Positions 3,089-24,986 of a stretch of DNA of 64,000 bases are shown here, in pieces (position 1 is the first letter of the stretch; the number at the start of each line of letters is the position of its first letter). The translations under genes and the position numbers were made by a program. The notes below the pieces were generated by a model, which saw nothing but the letters and a program-made list of their open reading frames with translations, made no database searches and was not told the DNA's origin. The stretch comes from a virus: positions 7,621-71,620 of the IMG/VR virus record IMGVR_UViG_3300006793_000023; one strand, given 5' to 3'.

Positions 3089-3895
3089 ATGGACATTAAT
3101 GCTATTCGCGCTAAATTAGATGCGCTAAACAACAACGGTCAGGATAAAGAGAAAACTGACTATTCCAAGATTTTCTGGAAACCACAATTAGGAAAGCAAA
3201 CAGTACGTATTGTACCTTCAGCTTTCGACCCTACTTTCCCTTTTAAGGAATTAAAATTTCATTACGGTATTGGAAAATACCCTATGGTAGCTTTATCAAA
3301 CTTTGGTAAGCAAGATCCGATTGAAGAGTTTGTAAAAGAGTTAAGAAAAACCAACGATAAAGATAACTGGTCACTTTCTGGCAAAATTTCACCTAAAACT
3401 AGAATCTTTGCTCCTGTTGTAGTAAGAGGAGAAGAAGATAAAGGAGTTAGATTATGGGGTTTTGGAGTAACTATTTATAAAGCATTACTTGCTTTAGCAG
3501 AAGATGAAGATATTGGAGACTTTACCGATGTATTAAACGGATGGGATATGGTAGTAGAACAGCAACAAGGTAATCCGTACCCTGAAACAACAGTACGTAT
3601 TAAACCAAAGCAAACACCTTTATCAGATAATAACGATTTAGTTGATACTTGGTTAAAAACTCAACCTAACCCGGTAGAGGTACATACTCAATACGATTAT
3701 GAATTTATTAAAAAGCAGTTACAAAATTACTTAGATCCTTCTGCAGCAGAAGAAAGTAATCAAACACCTGCAACTTCAAAAGAAGACAAACTGCCAGAAA
3801 GCTTAGGTCAACAAAAAGCAGACTTTACTTTGGAAACAGCTACGGCTGGCAACAAAGATACAGTGAGCAAATTTGATGATTTATTTAACGAATAG
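3089..3895 (+). CDS. single-stranded DNA-binding protein (T4 gp32-like)
   Basis: FWKP..G...VRIVP, DPI.E, acidic C-terminal tail KFDDLFNE; lies before recA. Confidence 0.75.
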   Translation: MDINAIRAKLDALNNNGQDKEKTDYSKIFWKPQLGKQTVRIVPSAFDPTFPFKELKFHYGIGKYPMVALSNFGKQDPIEEFVKELRKTNDKDNWSLSGKISPKTRIFAPVVVRGEEDKGVRLWGFGVTIYKALLALAEDEDIGDFTDVLNGWDMVVEQQQGNPYPETTVRIKPKQTPLSDNNDLVDTWLKTQPNPVEVHTQYDYEFIKKQLQNYLDPSAAEESNQTPATSKEDKLPESLGQQKADFTLETATAGNKDTVSKFDDLFNE

Positions 3896-4971: not shown

Positions 4972-6005
4972 TGGTCAATTATAGTAATATACTTAATAAA
5001 CTTAAAGAAACCCCGCCCCGAGAGTTGAATGATCACATTCTAGTGATTGACGCTATGAATATGTTAATTCGTAGTTTTTCATTACTCAAAGCAATGAACC
5101 CATCAGGCCATCATATAGGCGGCCTGGTCGGTTTTATGCGTTCATTAGGGTATGTAACTAGAATATTTGATCCAACGAGAGTAGTTATAGTATGGGACGG
5201 GAAAGGAGGATCTGCAAATCGTAAGAATATAGATCCAAACTATAAAGCTCAAAGAGCAACTGCTCGTATAACACATTGGGGACTTTATGATTCGAAAGCT
5301 GAAGAGCAAGAGGCCCTAATAGGGCAACTTTACAGAACACAAGATTACTTAGAATGCCTGCCAGTCCAACAGATTGGAATGGAAAAACTAGAAGCAGATG
5401 ATATTATAGCGTACATAGCTCAAAAAGCTTCAACATCTAATGTTAAAAAATGTACTATTATATCATCAGATAAGGACTTTTTGCAGTTAGTCGATAAAAC
5501 TATCGAAGTATATGCCCCAGTAAAGAAGAAAACATTCAATGAAAGTAATATATTCGAAGAATTAAAAGTTCTTCCTGAGAATTACAATGTTGTAAAAGCT
5601 CTTCTTGGAGATAACTCTGATAATTTAGCAGGAGTAAAAGGACTTGGAATTAAAACAATAATATCAGAATTTCCTGAACTAGTTAATACATCGGGAACAG
5701 ACTTACAGTATGTTTATGATACATGTGCAAGTAAGTTAGAGGAAAAAAAATGCAAGAAAATTTTTCCTAAAATTATCACAGAGTGGGATCGTGTAGAAAC
5801 TAATTATAAATTAATGAATTTACATGATTCTGTGTTGGATGATAAAGAAAAAAATCATATATTAGATATAATAAAGAGTGACATACCCAACCTACAAACA
5901 GGGGCATTTTTACATCTTTTAGATCAAGATAAGATAGAAGGGATTACAAAAAATACTGAAGGTTGGTTAGAGAACTTTAGAGGTTTAACGGTTTTTAAAA
6001 AATAA
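4971..6005 (+). CDS. 5'-3' exonuclease / flap endonuclease (PolI N-terminal, T4 RNase H-like)
   Basis: IDAMN, VWDG, YKAQR, EADDII, SSDKDF, GDNSDN and GVKGLG motifs. Confidence 0.9.
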   Translation: MVNYSNILNKLKETPPRELNDHILVIDAMNMLIRSFSLLKAMNPSGHHIGGLVGFMRSLGYVTRIFDPTRVVIVWDGKGGSANRKNIDPNYKAQRATARITHWGLYDSKAEEQEALIGQLYRTQDYLECLPVQQIGMEKLEADDIIAYIAQKASTSNVKKCTIISSDKDFLQLVDKTIEVYAPVKKKTFNESNIFEELKVLPENYNVVKALLGDNSDNLAGVKGLGIKTIISEFPELVNTSGTDLQYVYDTCASKLEEKKCKKIFPKIITEWDRVETNYKLMNLHDSVLDDKEKNHILDIIKSDIPNLQTGAFLHLLDQDKIEGITKNTEGWLENFRGLTVFKK

Positions 6006-7451: not shown

Positions 7452-8435
7452 ATGAGTTTACTTAACGAACGTGTGGTTTATAAACCCTTTGAATATCCAA
7501 AAGCTTTCGATTTTTGGCTTAAACAACAACAAGCACATTGGTTGCATACAGAAGTTCCTATGTCACAAGACGTAACAGACTGGGCTAGTAATTTAAAAGA
7601 CCATGAAAAAAATGTTATTGGAGGAATATTAAAAGGATTTGCGCAGACTGAAACCATAGTTAACGATTACTGGTCTACATTAGTCACTAAATGGTTTAGA
7701 AAACCTGAAATTATAATGATGGGAACTACATTAGGTTCAAGTGAAACAATACACGCGGAAGCATATTCATTATTAAACGAACAATTGGGGTTAGATAATT
7801 TTGCAGAGTTTTTAGAAGATGAAGCAACTATGGCAAAAATAGAAAATCTTATGGACGTAAGAGACGGACATGATGGAACTCCAAACTGGCACGATAGAGC
7901 TAAGTCATTAGCAATATTTTCTGCATTTACAGAAGGTGTTAACTTATTTTCTTCATTTGCAGTACTTTTATCATTTAAAATGAGAAACTTACTTAAAGGA
8001 GTAGGTCAAATAGTAGAATGGTCAGTTAGAGATGAATCTCTACACTCAGATGCAGGATGCTGGTTATTTAGAACCTTAATGGAAGAACACCCAGAATTTA
8101 AAACTCCTGAATTAGTAGCTGATATTGAAGAAGCAGCAAAAAATGCTTTACAGTTAGAGTTTGATTTTATAGATAAGATATTTGAAATGGGAGATTTAGA
8201 AAACCTTTCAAAGGAAGAGCTAAAGAATTTTATTCGTAATAGAGTAAATACAAAAATGAGCGATTTAGGATTAAAACCTATAGTTCCAGCTGAAGAAATC
8301 GATAAAGGAGCATTAAAGACAATGAAGTGGTTTGATGCGGTAATAGCAGGTAAGCAACATACAGACTTTTTTGCAAATCGAGTAACGAATTATGCAAAAG
8401 GGCATATGGAATGGGACGCTGCTACAATATTTTAA
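7452..8435 (+). CDS. nrdB: class Ia ribonucleotide reductase beta subunit
   Basis: ETIHAEAY, EGVNLFSSF, RDESLH and DFFANRVTNY motifs. Confidence 0.95.
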   Translation: MSLLNERVVYKPFEYPKAFDFWLKQQQAHWLHTEVPMSQDVTDWASNLKDHEKNVIGGILKGFAQTETIVNDYWSTLVTKWFRKPEIIMMGTTLGSSETIHAEAYSLLNEQLGLDNFAEFLEDEATMAKIENLMDVRDGHDGTPNWHDRAKSLAIFSAFTEGVNLFSSFAVLLSFKMRNLLKGVGQIVEWSVRDESLHSDAGCWLFRTLMEEHPEFKTPELVADIEEAAKNALQLEFDFIDKIFEMGDLENLSKEELKNFIRNRVNTKMSDLGLKPIVPAEEIDKGALKTMKWFDAVIAGKQHTDFFANRVTNYAKGHMEWDAATIF

Positions 8436-19108: not shown

Positions 19109-19137
19109 TGTGTCGTAGAACCACAATAAAACAAAAA
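19109..19137 (+). ncRNA. preQ1-I riboswitch-like aptamer (second copy)
   Basis: Stem TGTG/CACA, loop TCGTAGAAC, tail ATAAAACAAAAA; upstream of the folE ATG at 19145. Confidence 0.65.
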
Positions 19138-19144
19138 TTAAATT

Positions 19145-19858
19145 ATGCCTAAAAAGTTTATAGAAGGAACAGAATTAGTAAAAGCCGGATTCGCTAACGG
19201 TATTTCAACTCAATTAGCAGAGAAACAAAAAGTAGAAGGACCAGAAGCTAGACTTACTGATCATGAAAAGCAAGTTATTATAGAAAGAGCAGCTCAAGCT
19301 TATGCTGACTTTTTAACTGCTTTAGGATGCGATTACAAAGAAGATCCTAACTCAGCAGATACTCCTTTTAGAGTAGCTAAAGCTTACGTTAATGATTTAT
19401 GGGCCGGAAGATATAGTCCTCTAGATAAAATTACAGCATTTCCTTCAGACGGGTATGACGGTATAGTACAAGAGAGTAACATACCTGTAACGTCTATGTG
19501 TTCTCACCATCATCAAGCTATTAGAGGTACAGTAAGTATTGCTTATATAGCTTCAGAAGACGGTAAGGTAGTAGGGCTATCTAAACTAAATAGAATAGTA
19601 GAACAATTCGGTAGAAGAGGAGCTATTCAAGAGCAGTTAACTGTAGCTATTCATAATGCAGTAGATAAGATATGTGAAGGTAATTTAGGAGTAGCAGTTC
19701 AAGTTAATGCAACTCATGCATGTGTATCTTGTAGAGGAGTTAAGCATGGAGGAGCTTCTATGCAGACAGCTAAACTTACTGGAGCCTTTTTAGACGAACC
19801 ATCAGCTAAAGCTGAGTTTTATAAAAATATAGAATTAGCAGAAAAATGCAGTCATTAG
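19145..19858 (+). CDS. folE: GTP cyclohydrolase I
   Basis: TP.RVAK, SMCSHH, GLSKL.R, IQEQLT and HAC.SCRG motifs. Confidence 0.95.
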   Translation: MPKKFIEGTELVKAGFANGISTQLAEKQKVEGPEARLTDHEKQVIIERAAQAYADFLTALGCDYKEDPNSADTPFRVAKAYVNDLWAGRYSPLDKITAFPSDGYDGIVQESNIPVTSMCSHHHQAIRGTVSIAYIASEDGKVVGLSKLNRIVEQFGRRGAIQEQLTVAIHNAVDKICEGNLGVAVQVNATHACVSCRGVKHGGASMQTAKLTGAFLDEPSAKAEFYKNIELAEKCSH

Positions 19859-20550
19859 AAGAAAATAATAACGATTTTGAAAATGATCCTGATTGGTTAG
19901 AGTTTTTAGAACATGCTGATAAACCAGGGCCTTGGTCTGAAGAAGATGATAAGATTCATACTATAGGAGGGCTATCAAACGATAAAGAAGGATCGTTTAT
20001 GAAGTTTCAAAATAAGATTAAAAATAAAGAGAAGATGAGTAAACAATTATCACTATTTGAAGAGGAAGAGTTACCTGTTTGGGTAAACGGAGTACCCTTT
20101 GTTGATGAAGTAGAGACATTTAATGCTACTTTCGGTAAACCTAACAATTATGAACCAACAATACCAGAGAAAAAAGAATGGCAATTTGTATACGACTTTA
20201 TACTCGAAGAATTGGAGGAATATAGACAAGCTTGCGAAAACGGAGACATCGTGGAAGTTTTGGATGCTTTGTGTGATATTACTTATGTTTCCCTTGGGAA
20301 CGGTGTTATGTTACACGGTCTTAAGAATCAGATATGGCCAGCATATCAAGAGGTACAAGCAAGCAATATGTCAAAGTCTTGCTCTACTGAAGAAGAAGCC
20401 ATACAGACTGTCTCCATACGAGCTAAAGAGCAGGGTGAGCCGTGTCATTATGAAGAAGTTAATGATAGGTACATCGTATATAGATCAAGAGATAGAAAAG
20501 TAATGAAGTCTGTAAATTACTTTAGACCTAATTTAAAAAAATTCTTTTAA
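19846..20550 (+). CDS. all-alpha NTP pyrophosphohydrolase (MazG/PRA-PH-like)
   Basis: EELEEY, EVLDALCDITYV, EVQASNMSK and KVMK motifs; the true start may be 20035. Confidence 0.8.
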   Translation: MQSLEENNNDFENDPDWLEFLEHADKPGPWSEEDDKIHTIGGLSNDKEGSFMKFQNKIKNKEKMSKQLSLFEEEELPVWVNGVPFVDEVETFNATFGKPNNYEPTIPEKKEWQFVYDFILEELEEYRQACENGDIVEVLDALCDITYVSLGNGVMLHGLKNQIWPAYQEVQASNMSKSCSTEEEAIQTVSIRAKEQGEPCHYEEVNDRYIVYRSRDRKVMKSVNYFRPNLKKFF

Positions 20551-20738
20551 TGGCAATAAAACTAGAAGAACATAAGGTTTACGTAGATAGTCATAAAATG
20601 GAAATGGTGCCGTTAACTGTAGCAATAGAAGCAGTAAATCAAGCATTAAATCCAGATATAGAAAAGTACACAGAAGAGCTAGAAAATGCTATGGAAGAAT
20701 TACGTAACTCCTTAAATAATATTAGTATAGATGATTAA
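20550..20738 (+). CDS. hypothetical protein
   Basis: 62-aa ORF overlapping both neighbours. Confidence 0.5.
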   Translation: MAIKLEEHKVYVDSHKMEMVPLTVAIEAVNQALNPDIEKYTEELENAMEELRNSLNNISIDD

Positions 20739-21531
20739 AATAGCTCACGAAAGCCCAAAAAGTATTTTTAGCGATGTACAAAAATATACAGACTACGATT
20801 ATGCTCTAGTACATTTATTTGAGGAAGATAAAGAATACTTAAATCAATTTAAAGAAGCAGTATCAAAAGGAAGAGAAGTTATATTAGATAATTCTATCTT
20901 TGAATTAGAGGAAGCATTTGATGCAGATAAATTCGCTCACTGGATTAATGAATTAAGACCTACATGGTATATAGTCCCTGATGTACTAGAAGATGCTAAA
21001 AAAACTATGAGTCAAATGGCTAGCTGGAATATGCACTATTCGGATGTAGTTTTTGGTAAAAAAATAGGAGTAGTTCAAGGTAAGACCTATAAACAAATAG
21101 TTGCATGTTATGAATATATGGATAAAATAGCTGATGTAGATATGATAGCTATATCATTTGATTATTCGTACTATACAAAGACGGTTCCTCATCCTAATAA
21201 ATACGTTAGCTGGATGCTAGGACGTATAAAGCTACTTGGAGATTTAGTTAAAGACGGAATTATAAATGAAAATAAACCTCATCATTTACTTGGATGCGGC
21301 TTACCACAAGAGTTTTCCTACTATTCTCAATACCCTTGGATATACTCTTTAGATACTAGTAATCCAGTTGTACATGGAATAAAAGGCATTAAATATAACT
21401 CAGACGGATTATGGTCTAAAGAAAGTCAAAAGTTGTTTGAACTGATTAATTACGAGGTAGGGGATACAAATTTAATTTTAGGAAACATTCATAAATTTAG
21501 ATGGTTAGCAAATGGCAGTAGAGAGTTATAA
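20731..21531 (+). CDS. dpdA: DpdA-type (DpdA3-like) TGT-fold 7-deazaguanine insertion enzyme
   Basis: TGT-family motifs ILDNS.FE, PDV, GVVQG, HHLLG and SLDTS, within the Que gene cluster. Confidence 0.75.
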   Translation: MIKIAHESPKSIFSDVQKYTDYDYALVHLFEEDKEYLNQFKEAVSKGREVILDNSIFELEEAFDADKFAHWINELRPTWYIVPDVLEDAKKTMSQMASWNMHYSDVVFGKKIGVVQGKTYKQIVACYEYMDKIADVDMIAISFDYSYYTKTVPHPNKYVSWMLGRIKLLGDLVKDGIINENKPHHLLGCGLPQEFSYYSQYPWIYSLDTSNPVVHGIKGIKYNSDGLWSKESQKLFELINYEVGDTNLILGNIHKFRWLANGSREL

Positions 21532-21706
21532 AATAGGAGATAAAGTAAAATTTAAGTTTATTGGCAGGCTTCAAGTAGGTATAATAGAAGATATAAAAGA
21601 AGGAGTTCAGGTGGATATCTGTAAAGAAAAAATTAGATTTGATATTAAAGACGGTAAATATACTTACCCAGTTGGTTTGGAAAATATTATAGAAAAAATA
21701 AAATGA
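21512..21706 (+). CDS. small SH3/KOW-like protein
   Basis: YKIGDKVKF...G.I pattern. Confidence 0.45.
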   Translation: MAVESYKIGDKVKFKFIGRLQVGIIEDIKEGVQVDICKEKIRFDIKDGKYTYPVGLENIIEKIK

Positions 21707-22242
21707 ATAAACCTTGGATAGCATTTTTTAGTCAGACAGGGTCTGAGATTGTTAGTATTGCTAAAGCTCTTAATAGATGGCCAGATGTTATAGTAACTAA
21801 TGAAAGACCTTCTAAACTTAGAACTATTAATTCAGCATTATTAGAACAGGATTTATTAGTTACAACTAGTAATAAACCTACAGAAACTGAATTATCTGAG
21901 TTACTTGAATACTACGATTCTCCAATAATAACTCTTCATGGATGGTTGAGAATAATGCCTCCTAAAATTTGTGAAAGTTATAATATATTTAACGGACATC
22001 CTGGCCTTATAACAGAATACCCAGAATTAAAAGGTAAAGATCCTCAAATGAGAGCTTTAAAAGAAGGGTACCCAGTAATGGGTTGTGTACTTCATAAAGT
22101 AGTTGCAGGAGTAGACGAAGGGAAAATCTTAGCAGAAGAAAGATTTAATGCTTTTAATATTAACGAAGAAGAAATGTGGATAGCTACTAGAGATAGATCT
22201 CTTTACCTATGGGTTAAATTTCTTGAGAAAGCTTTAATATGA
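21703..22242 (+). CDS. dpdN: PurN-like formyltransferase (DpdN-like, predicted preQ1 formylation)
   Basis: FFSQTGS, LHGWLRI, NGHPGL and GCVLH.V..GVDEGKI formyltransferase motifs; next to dpdA and queF. Confidence 0.75.
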   Translation: MNKPWIAFFSQTGSEIVSIAKALNRWPDVIVTNERPSKLRTINSALLEQDLLVTTSNKPTETELSELLEYYDSPIITLHGWLRIMPPKICESYNIFNGHPGLITEYPELKGKDPQMRALKEGYPVMGCVLHKVVAGVDEGKILAEERFNAFNINEEEMWIATRDRSLYLWVKFLEKALI

Positions 22243-22529
22243 CAGAAAAAGAGCACCTACTTGTACTCCTTATAGAAGAATGCGTAGAAGTATCTCAAAG
22301 AGCAACTAAGATACTTAGATTTGGCTTTAATGATCCTACAGGTACAGAACCTGATCAGCCGTATAATAATGAAGAAAGGCTTATACAAGAGATTAACGAT
22401 TTAGAAGCGGTTATAGATTTACTATTTCAAGATAAACCATTTTATAAATCACCTTTGCTTCAAAATAGAAAGAAAGAAAAAATAAAAAAATATTCTGAAC
22501 TTTCAAAAAAATTAGGTTTATTAAATTAA
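22239..22529 (+). CDS. MazG-like nucleotide pyrophosphohydrolase
   Basis: EECVEV...K.LRFG...EINDL (ExxE...ExxD) pattern. Confidence 0.65.
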   Translation: MTEKEHLLVLLIEECVEVSQRATKILRFGFNDPTGTEPDQPYNNEERLIQEINDLEAVIDLLFQDKPFYKSPLLQNRKKEKIKKYSELSKKLGLLN

Positions 22530-22559
22530 TTTTCGTATATTAAATATAAAGGTTATTAG

Positions 22560-23078
22560 ATGATTAAAAGAATAGCACTAGTAGGAGCTAGTAGTACGGG
22601 TAAGACTACTGTTTATGAACTACTTAAAAATAAATTACCTAAATACGAATTCGTAAACGAATCCACTAGAACTGTAGGTAGTTACGGATTTCCTATTAAT
22701 GAAGAAGGAACTTGTGCTACTCAGTTAGCTATCAGTAGTTTTCATTTAGAGGCTTTACTTCAACCTTATAACTTAGTATTAGATAGATGTTATATGGATG
22801 TAGTAGTTTATACTAAATTTATGAAAGGAGTAACTTCACATACTTACAATTATATAGAAGATACTTGGAATAGAGTAAAAAATGAATATACTCATTATAT
22901 TTACTTTCCTATTGAATTTGCTTCTGTAGATGATGGAGTAAGAAGTATAAGTGAAGAATGGAGAAAAGAAGTAGATGAAGAGTTTAGAGATGTATTAGAT
23001 GGAGTACGTCAACCTTACTTAACTATAACTGGTTCTCCTATGCAAAGAGTAGAACAAATAATGAAATTTATAAATTAA
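22560..23078 (+). CDS. P-loop nucleotide kinase (AAA_28/NadR-like, dNMP kinase candidate)
   Basis: GASSTGKTT, E..R, LDRC..D and DDGVR motifs. Confidence 0.75.
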   Translation: MIKRIALVGASSTGKTTVYELLKNKLPKYEFVNESTRTVGSYGFPINEEGTCATQLAISSFHLEALLQPYNLVLDRCYMDVVVYTKFMKGVTSHTYNYIEDTWNRVKNEYTHYIYFPIEFASVDDGVRSISEEWRKEVDEEFRDVLDGVRQPYLTITGSPMQRVEQIMKFIN

Positions 23079-23082
23079 AATT

Positions 23083-23994
23083 ATGTCAGACGTTAAAAAT
23101 TATCAAGAAGTAGTAGAAATCGCTTCTAAACATTTAGGGAAAGTAGGAGGAGATGGGTACAAAGATACCTACGCTCCAGAACTATTAGTTAAGGTACCCA
23201 GGTACTTAAACAGAGAAGGTTATGGATTAACCTCAGATAGCTTTGTAGGAGTAGACACTTGGAATTGCTATGAAGTATCAGCTATCACAACTAAGGGACT
23301 ACCAGTAGCAGGTATGTTAAAAATTGTATGTCCTTCAGATAGTGAATATCACGTAGAATCTAAGTCAATTAAACTATACTTAAATTCATTTAATATGACA
23401 CGTATAGGAGATAACTCAACAGACTGTATGGCAGTTATAGAAGCAAGAGTAAAGAGAGATTTAGATGAGCTACTAGAAACTAACACAACTGTATCTTTCT
23501 ACTCTTCAGAAGAAGATGGAAAAGCCTTTTCCTTTGAAGGATATACAGATCTTGGAGACATAGTAGATTTAGATCAAATAGATTTCACAGCGTTTAAATC
23601 AGATTCTTCTCAACTTTTAATCGAAGATAACTCAGACGATCCTATCGAAGTTAAGCTTAAATCTAATCTACTTAGATCAAATTGTAGAGTAACAAATCAA
23701 CCAGATTGGGGAGATGTATTTATTAGAATAAATGGTAGAGATGTACCTGCAGTAGATGCTTTAGCAAAGTATATTGTATCTCATAGAACTGTAAGTCATT
23801 TTCATGAAGAGATATGTGAAATGGTATTCAAGCACCTAATGGATGCCTATAAGCCAGAACAGTTAATGGTAGCATGTTTATATACTAGAAGAGGAGGATT
23901 GGATATTAATCCTGTGAGAGCTACTCATCAAAGCTTGATACCAGACTTTTTTACAAAGCCAGATTTAAGAATTGCTAAAACCTTAAGACAGTAG
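23083..23994 (+). CDS. queF: NADPH-dependent preQ0 reductase (bimodular QueF)
   Basis: VESKSIKLYLNSF QueF motif, SNCRVTNQPDWG, FHEE and YTRRGGLDINP. Confidence 0.93.
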   Translation: MSDVKNYQEVVEIASKHLGKVGGDGYKDTYAPELLVKVPRYLNREGYGLTSDSFVGVDTWNCYEVSAITTKGLPVAGMLKIVCPSDSEYHVESKSIKLYLNSFNMTRIGDNSTDCMAVIEARVKRDLDELLETNTTVSFYSSEEDGKAFSFEGYTDLGDIVDLDQIDFTAFKSDSSQLLIEDNSDDPIEVKLKSNLLRSNCRVTNQPDWGDVFIRINGRDVPAVDALAKYIVSHRTVSHFHEEICEMVFKHLMDAYKPEQLMVACLYTRRGGLDINPVRATHQSLIPDFFTKPDLRIAKTLRQ

Positions 23995-24494: not shown

Positions 24495-24551
24495 AGATTT
24501 AAGTTGCTTAATTGCAACTTTTTTCTTATATTAAAGTATAAAATAGGTTAT

Positions 24552-24986
24552 ATGAAAACAGCTAAATATTGGCAAGAAAAAGGTTTTGAAAAGATTGCTT
24601 GTATATACACTAGTGATAGATTAAAACAAGGTGTAGATGTAGAATTCACAATTAAAAAAGAAGATTGGAATAAACATCCTGGCGTTTATTTAATATGCTC
24701 TCTAGAAGAAGAGCTACTTAAAATAGGTCAATCAGCAAATCTATACCATAGAATTAACACTCAGTATAAGTGTGTAAGTAACTTAGGTAATAATAGAATT
24801 AGAGCTGAAATAAAAGATAAGTACGGTAAGGTACTTATATATGCTTTAAAAACACCTAAAGAAAAATTTTCTTTACTGAATTATTCTTTCTATATTAATT
24901 ATCAGAAAGGTTTAGAGGAAGCTATGCTTCATGATTATTATAATAAGGTTGGAGATATACCAACACTTAATATGCAACGAAATTAA
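24552..24986 (+). CDS. GIY-YIG-like nuclease
   Basis: GVYLI...LKIGQS.NL..RI motif; start reassigned to the ATG after the promoter at ~24503-24532. Confidence 0.6.
   Translation: MKTAKYWQEKGFEKIACIYTSDRLKQGVDVEFTIKKEDWNKHPGVYLICSLEEELLKIGQSANLYHRINTQYKCVSNLGNNRIRAEIKDKYGKVLIYALKTPKEKFSLLNYSFYINYQKGLEEAMLHDYYNKVGDIPTLNMQRN

Follow-up and report, generated by a model that had tools for sequence, protein, structure and literature searches.

The DNA analyzed here (the window) is a 64,000-nucleotide stretch, positions 7,621 to 71,620, of the IMG/VR viral record IMGVR_UViG_3300006793_000023, for which CheckV gives a completeness of 44%. It belongs to an immuto-like phage of Flavobacteriia that encodes the full preQ1 pathway together with DpdA and a DpdN-like formyltransferase. 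The nearest named kin is Flavobacterium phage vB_FspM_immuto (immuto below), and the Cellulophaga phiST group is more distant. The pathway genes begin with queC (11938-12726) and continue on the plus strand with an operon at 15962-17525 consisting of orf80 (15962-16204), queD (16214-16678), and queE (16659-17525). The folE gene for GTP cyclohydrolase I (19145-19858, plus strand, 237 amino acids; PF01227 GTP_cyclohydroI, E value of 8.4e-42) follows, and downstream of it further pathway genes occupy positions 19846-23994 of the same strand: a MazG-like gene (19846), DpdA (20731; 80% identity to the annotated DpdA of immuto), the DpdN-like formyltransferase (21703; 57% identity to the DpdN of immuto), a kinase (22560), and QueF (23083). 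A family A DNA polymerase is also encoded in the window. The DNA of immuto is reported to contain 345,000 fdPreQ1 per 10^6 nucleotides with no dG peak (PMC10516641), and because immuto carries the same pathway, a very large GTP-derived flux is expected through that of the window phage.

Two further features were noted near these genes. The Rfam tRNA model scores 41.8 bits at positions 12905-13017 (plus strand), where the anticodon arm would hold a 52-nt insert, while ARAGORN finds no tRNA in the window; this stretch, which has queC on one side and the que operons on the other, could be a tRNA-like gene or one that is interrupted. An open reading frame (ORF) at 24504-24986 (plus strand), directly before the family A DNA polymerase gene and overlapping its start, has a weak GIY-YIG match (E value of 0.0012, under the Pfam cutoff) and may be a homing endonuclease.

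Downstream of queC, a short hairpin with an A-rich tail precedes each of the two operons. The folE element spans positions 19109-19135 of the plus strand (27 bases), and its letters are as the preliminary description gave them: TGTG (19109-19112), TCGTAGAAC (19113-19121), CACA (19122-19125), and ATAAAACAAAAA (19126-19137), ahead of the folE ATG at 19145. As RNA, the UGUG 5' strand of the stem (P1) pairs with the CACA 3' strand around the 9-nt loop UCGUAGAAC, and C19122 and G19112 form the pair that closes the loop. The A-rich segment AUAAAA (19126-19131), termed L3 by analogy with known aptamers, leads to CAAA (19132-19135), a putative 3' strand of a second helix (P2) for which the pairs C19132-G19118 and A19135-U19116 are proposed on suggestive grounds. 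The folE start codon comes 9 nt past this putative pseudoknot. The twin element (15931-15958, plus strand) reads AGTG-TCGTAGCAC-CACT-ATAAAAACAC in DNA letters from position 15931, that is AGUG, UCGUAGCAC, CACU, AUAAAAA, and CACA as RNA, and ends 3 nt before the orf80 ATG (15962). The differences between the copies that had been described are all present: the outer stem pair is U-A in the folE copy and A-U in the twin, one loop base changes from A to C, and the tails differ.

These two copies are the only ones in the window, as shown by scans of the kind that had been proposed. Exact copies of the 15-mer GTGTCGTAGNACCAC number two, both in the window and in the full record of 71,620 bases; 3 mismatches must be allowed before a further site appears, and compared with shuffled sequences this is unremarkable. 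A covariance model of the phage element (R1), built from 36 distinct sequences, was run on both strands of the 64 kb and scored the twin at 47.2 bits and the folE copy at 43.4 bits, with the next best match at 17.5 bits.

Promoter-like boxes lie upstream of both elements on the plus strand, TGGATA-16-TATATT at 19072-19099 for the folE copy and TTGCCT-17-TATATT at 15887-15915 for the twin. As a consensus match, the promoter that had been assigned to folE is no more than chance would give, since boxes of this kind are no commoner in the window than in shuffles, but a TTG-N~20-TATATT box is conserved 5 to 11 nt before the stem across 60 distinct upstream regions of relatives. A candidate general promoter of the window, AATAAA-N3-8-TATATT, was rejected; it has 2 matches, both at the elements, where 1.5 are expected by chance. 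The conserved position of the box suggests that the RNA would start at or just before the stem, which for folE places the predicted start at about 19105-19108, a few bases upstream. The leader taken alone is nearly free of structure (-1.3 kcal/mol; z score of +1.24), and the 4-bp stem is marginal by itself. No terminator is listed between the element and the ATG, so control, if exerted here, would most likely be translational. The element contains no Shine-Dalgarno GG. Bacteroidota mRNAs are described as lacking Shine-Dalgarno sequences, with mRNA structure tuning initiation (PMC6847099), and the missing GG therefore fits a Bacteroidota host.

The same arrangement recurs in related phages. Among 80 IMG/VR loci collected around relatives of FolE, most carry this hairpin with its tail downstream of a promoter-like box and ahead of the folE start. 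R1 gave 95 matches in 63 of these loci, every one on the gene strand, with two matches in 32 loci and none in 17. The element sites in relatives lie before folE and/or before orf80-queD-queE, and the start codon comes within about 20 nt of the element. The order orf80-queD-queE after the element is preserved in related loci, and in some relatives the element stands directly before queD or queE, without orf80. The non-folE copy is followed by orf80, queD, or queE in all of the 21 loci listed except one (L193), where the sequence ends about 200 bases past the element. In four complete relatives (160 to 177 kb), the numbers of R1 matches are 1, 2, 2, and 1, and all fall within the que cluster. 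The statement in the preliminary description that the motif occurs only ahead of the two pathway-entry operons thus holds in the window and, with R1, in its relatives; since the non-folE copies always head orf80-queD-queE, queD, or queE where the contig reaches that far, the element is not a motif spread widely before unrelated genes. The element is absent before folE in 24 of the 80 loci, and several of these 24 retain the promoter box, which suggests that it is a dispensable add-on to a plain leader.

The product of orf80 (80 amino acids) is small, with a hydrophobic C-terminal half, and has no Pfam or PHROG match; its gene is the first one after the queD-type element in most related loci. 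Immuto itself has a single R1 match in 160 kb, the folE copy, and at the corresponding site before its gene 54 and queD (L003:2820-2846) the promoter-like box is kept and the hairpin is absent. No copy was found in the que region of Cellulophaga phage phi13:1 of the phiST group.

Outside these phages the element was sought in bacterial genomes. The pattern GWGTCGTAGMACCWCNNNAAAA, scanned against one genome for each of 185,579 species, matched 13 stretches, and only one contig among them carries the true element, in both copies; the other stretches were rejected for want of a proper stem or tail. That contig (L209, 5.9 kb, assigned to a "Verrucomicrobiales" metagenome-assembled genome) has elements at 3187-3216 and 5509-5538 as well as folE, and has the look of phage DNA that was placed in a bacterial bin. 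A sample of 151 Bacteroidota genomes yielded no R1 match at an E value of ≤0.1 and no match above the cutoff to the Rfam preQ1 model (RF00522); a single 25-bit RF00522 match in this sample was dropped, as it lies inside an 825-amino-acid ORF on the other strand. Across the bacterial pattern scan and the 151 Bacteroidota genomes, the variant was found only in phage DNA.

Segments of the queD, queE, and folE genes of close relatives turn up in metatranscriptome contigs (runs X1 to X4). In run X3, a contig that comes from a seawater RNA library has the TGAG/CTCA variant of the folE element, at window position 19128, and extends 94 nt upstream; relatives of the window phage are accordingly present in such libraries. 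Contigs from such libraries cannot reveal where a transcript starts or whether a given stretch was RNA.

Comparison of the relatives' copies bears out the covarying stem that had been noted from the two copies in the window. In 49 distinct sequences, P1 takes the forms UGUG/CACA, UGAG/CUCA, GGAG/CUCC, GGUG/CACC, AGUG/CACU, and UAAG/CUUA; 3 of the 4 pairs show changes on both sides, and 99.5% of cells are paired, although the choice of instances with no fewer than 3 stem pairs has partly selected for this percentage. None of 500 shuffles scored as high, and slid registers were 31 to 58% paired. The folE leaders viewed without selection for stem pairing also speak for P1. The loop-closing pair is G-C, with G on the 5' strand, in 49/49 sequences, and no G-U pairs occur in P1 among them. 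When the loop-plus-tail pattern was searched in IMG/VR loci, 97 of the 116 matches had a stem of fewer than 4 bp and 19 had at least 4 bp; 17 of the latter belong to the phage element family. The other 2 (L170 and L174), which have the same loop on a 5-bp stem, fall inside a long opposite-strand ORF with no que genes nearby and were set aside as chance. Two weak regular-expression matches (L051 and L100) were left out of the alignments because no start codon is nearby or the stem is poor.

The loop and tail are the most constant parts of the element. The loop is near-invariant, UCGUAG[A/C]AC, with rare UUGAAG, UCGGAG, UCGAAG, and UCACAG forms and one ending in CCC. The first loop position is an invariant T column. 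The last loop C (column C18 of alignment A1) is also invariant and is kept in all 41 distinct rows of an R1 alignment that takes in variants absent from the R1 building set. Of 36 distinct cores, 35 have the dinucleotide AC before the P1 3' strand and the other has CC. In the same 36 cores, L3 measures 5 to 9 nt, most often 7, and is mostly A, followed by C-A; the regular expression had demanded an A-run and then C, and R1 matches found without such a demand show the same. The loop G and the tail C are never missing.

This pattern of conservation resembles the ligand pocket of class I preQ1 riboswitches (preQ1-I). In that class a strictly conserved specificity C adjoins the P1 3' strand on its 5' side, and in type II it is preceded by A (PMC11625349, PMC7641330), so that type II has AC where type I has UC (PMC11625349). 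The pocket is also described as having a G-C pair as its floor, a C7·G11-C30 ceiling, an adenine from L3, and U6, with which the loop begins (PMC11625349, PMC7641330). The phage columns matching this pocket are invariant or at least 90% conserved. Judged by position in the folE element, the first U of the loop would be the counterpart of U6, the following C that of C7, and the second G (G19118) that of G11, and the last loop C (C19121), which follows an A, would take the place of the specificity base. The closing pair C19122-G19112 would by the same reasoning occupy the position of the pocket floor, and the L3 tail, if it behaves as in class I structures, would lie in the P1 minor groove when folded. 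The tail has the A-rich L3 and the conserved C that in class I would pair with the loop G to form the ceiling, and the element is placed, like class I riboswitches, in the leader of preQ1-synthesis genes.

The closest counterpart is the Tte-like type II form, represented by the translational 33-mer of Thermoanaerobacter tengcongensis (Tte). Both consist of a hairpin followed by an A-rich tail, an architecture that can fold into an H-type pseudoknot. In both, P1 is closed by a G-C pair, the loop opens with U-C-G-N-A-G and has A-C as its last bases before the P1 3' strand, the A-run of the tail leads into C-A-A, and the start codon of a queuosine-pathway gene follows closely. In the alignment, the conserved phage bases correspond to the pocket positions of Tte-like preQ1-I, minus one P1 pair and one L2 base. 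The phage loop U-C-G-U-A-G-A-A-C aligns with U6 to C15 of Tte with one L2 base missing, and the tail C-A-A-A aligns with C30 to G33. P2 of the Tte aptamer is made up of G11-C30, G8·A31, A10·A32, and C9-G33, the last of which would be replaced by U-A in the phage. The phage P1 has 4 bp instead of 5, the core measures 27 to 28 nt instead of 33, and the loop has 9 nt instead of 10 to 12, with L2 at least 1 base shorter, and L3 has 5 to 9 nt. L2 is thus shorter than in any bacterial example compared. Unlike the bacterial forms, the phage element also lacks the Shine-Dalgarno G-G that closes their P2.

Formal profile searches did not recover the likeness. A search with all 4227 Rfam families gave no preQ1 match at the gathering score (39 bits for RF00522), and none at an E value of ≤10 on stretches of 161, 161, and 47 bases at the elements. 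RF00522 alone, run on the record, gave 4 weak matches (9.7 to 12.7 bits), none of them at an element. The preQ1-II (RF01054) and preQ1-III (RF02680) models gave no match, and the element is far shorter than either class. Bacterial references were then taken from RF00522 matches in two samples of Bacillota genomes (151 and 34). Tte-like aptamers among them (L221, L222, L224, L225, and L229 to L235; at about 1505-1540 of each), with the loop UCGCAG...AC and an A-run followed by CAAGG, score 29.5 to 37.5 bits against RF00522, under the cutoff of 39. All 5 of the subcutoff aptamers tested sit before QueT, Vut_1/YhhQ, or QueF genes, so failing the Rfam cutoff is weak evidence against membership. 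With R2, a model built from four bacterial Tte-like aptamers, the top match in the 64-kb window was the twin, aligned in register (13.5 bits; E value of 0.33); the folE copy was absent from the matches, and 11 other phage loci gave no full-length match. R3, built from 11 bacterial aptamers, ranked the twin fourth at 9.3 bits. Conversely, R1 scored true bacterial riboswitches at 8.4 to 12.6 bits, within noise. Recognition between the phage model and the bacterial riboswitches is thus at noise level both ways, and by profile the element does not fall within the class. Of the preQ1-I-like identity that had been proposed, the correspondence to the pocket bases of type II holds, but the profile searches with RF00522, R2, and R3 either fail or remain at noise level.

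P2 shows no firm covariation. A candidate pair between loop position 4 and the third base after the tail C is possible in 25 of the 36 distinct cores, fewer than the 28 allowed by a slid control. All 4 of the cores with C at loop position 4 have G three bases past the tail C, and at no other offset, although they may represent a single lineage. This UCACAG variant (in place of UCGUAG), with its G in the tail, is the only hint of P2 covariation. It was seen in the queD-type copy of four loci (L034:1195-1224, L045:548-577, L017:860-889, and L024:1715-1744).

We consider the element to be a miniature, phage-specific, preQ1-I-like translational OFF switch that gives coordinated feedback on the two operons, and assign this reading a probability of roughly 0.6. 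Free preQ1 or preQ0 would pair with the last loop C; the A-tract would then dock in the P1 groove, and the tail C-A-A-A would pair with the loop (G-C, A·A, and U-A). The resulting H-type pseudoknot would end 9 nt before the folE start codon or 3 nt before that of orf80, at the extreme 5' ends of the folE and orf80-queD-queE mRNAs. Since Bacteroidota ribosomes need unstructured leaders rather than Shine-Dalgarno pairing, folding of the leader would block loading of the 30S subunit and act as an OFF switch. Whenever production of the base outpaces its insertion into DNA by DpdA, the switch would turn down both entry operons at once. By means of the element and a putative ligand, the phage probably throttles synthesis of the modified guanine for its DNA, and the limitation of GTP drain, which had been suggested as the purpose of such control, would be a reasonable one.

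Other explanations of the same hairpin are less probable. Translational repressors of other phages act on RNA operators, and a phage or host protein that binds the loop and represses or times both operons would make the likeness to preQ1-I coincidental or vestigial. Protein-bound hairpins, too, look like this, with a loop that is invariant and a stem that is short and variable; the 4-bp stem is marginal alone, and the profile tests for preQ1-I all fail or stay at noise level. Such a protein operator would nonetheless have to match the class I pocket one for one, including the AC, the C that comes after the A-tract, and the direction in which the closing G-C pair is set. Nor did a candidate partner emerge: orf80, the constant neighbor of the twin, has a hydrophobic C-terminal half and no family match, and is missing in those relatives where the element directly precedes queD or queE. 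We regard an RNA operator as unlikely, if the most serious competitor of a ligand-sensing switch. It is harder still to see the element as a leader feature that senses nothing, either a stabilizing 5' hairpin or a fixed element tuning the translation of two coexpressed operons. The position at the predicted 5' end of the mRNA would suit this role, as would its dispensability, with 24 of 80 folE loci lacking it before folE (17 of them without any R1 match) and several keeping the promoter box. A stabilizing hairpin, however, needs neither an invariant loop nor a conserved tail C, and the restriction to two deazaguanine-entry operons in genomes of 160 to 177 kb would go unexplained, which makes a purely structural role improbable.

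The remaining alternative places the function in the DNA, with TGTG-N9-CACA as a double-stranded operator for a dimeric repressor and the apparent covariation produced by half-sites that coevolve with it. The element does lie 5 to 11 bp past a promoter-like box, the usual position of an operator, and P1 shows no G-U pairs, which would prove pairing in RNA. Yet the half-sites vary (TGTG, TGAG, GGAG, GGTG, AGTG, and TAAG) around an asymmetric 9-nt spacer that is nearly invariant, the reverse of what an operator would show; none of the 95 matches in relatives falls on the strand opposite the genes, the conserved A-rich tail stands on one side only, and a start codon follows within about 20 nt; and no DNA-binding protein was identified in the cluster. 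Because the half-sites vary, the asymmetric spacer is fixed, and the copies are strand specific with a one-sided tail, we think it very improbable that the element works as a DNA site.

The proposed OFF switch invites comparison with known class I systems. The type II preQ1-I riboswitch of the B. subtilis queCDEF operon likewise exerts feedback by the pathway base on an operon that makes preQ0/preQ1 from GTP (PMC11625349). That switch ends transcription and its product goes to tRNA, whereas here two copies would govern two operons and the product goes to DNA. The type III riboswitch of E. coli is described as the smallest and most stringent class I model, and shares with the phage element the AC and translational control (PMC11625349); in type III the P1 5' strand is followed by UU and an AAGG Shine-Dalgarno sequence is buried, whereas the phage element has U-C at that point and no Shine-Dalgarno sequence, and type III is almost exclusive to Pseudomonadota. 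Beyond the switch itself, the chances seem about even that the element represents a fourth subtype of class I, one carried by phages and, at 27 to 28 nt, smaller than any other natural aptamer known, which is adapted to hosts that ignore Shine-Dalgarno sequences and whose two copies gate the entry operons of a pathway that replaces every genomic G. The ligand of such a subtype would fold away an A-rich, structure-free leader instead of hiding a Shine-Dalgarno sequence, and given the shortened L2 it could be preQ1, preQ0, or the formylated form.

In a search by title and abstract of the literature on preQ1 riboswitches in phages, DpdA, and 7-deazaguanine, no description of such an element was found, and the terms "riboswitch" and "regulat" do not occur in the available text of the immuto fdPreQ1 paper (PMC10516641). 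The Rfam preQ1 model misses Tte-like and smaller members, and surveys that depend on it would for that reason undercount preQ1 sensing in phages and metagenomes. If the element binds a 7-deazaguanine, it would be the shortest natural riboswitch aptamer, a test case for translational control by riboswitches without Shine-Dalgarno pairing, and a case in which a metabolite feeds back on a pathway of phage DNA hypermodification.
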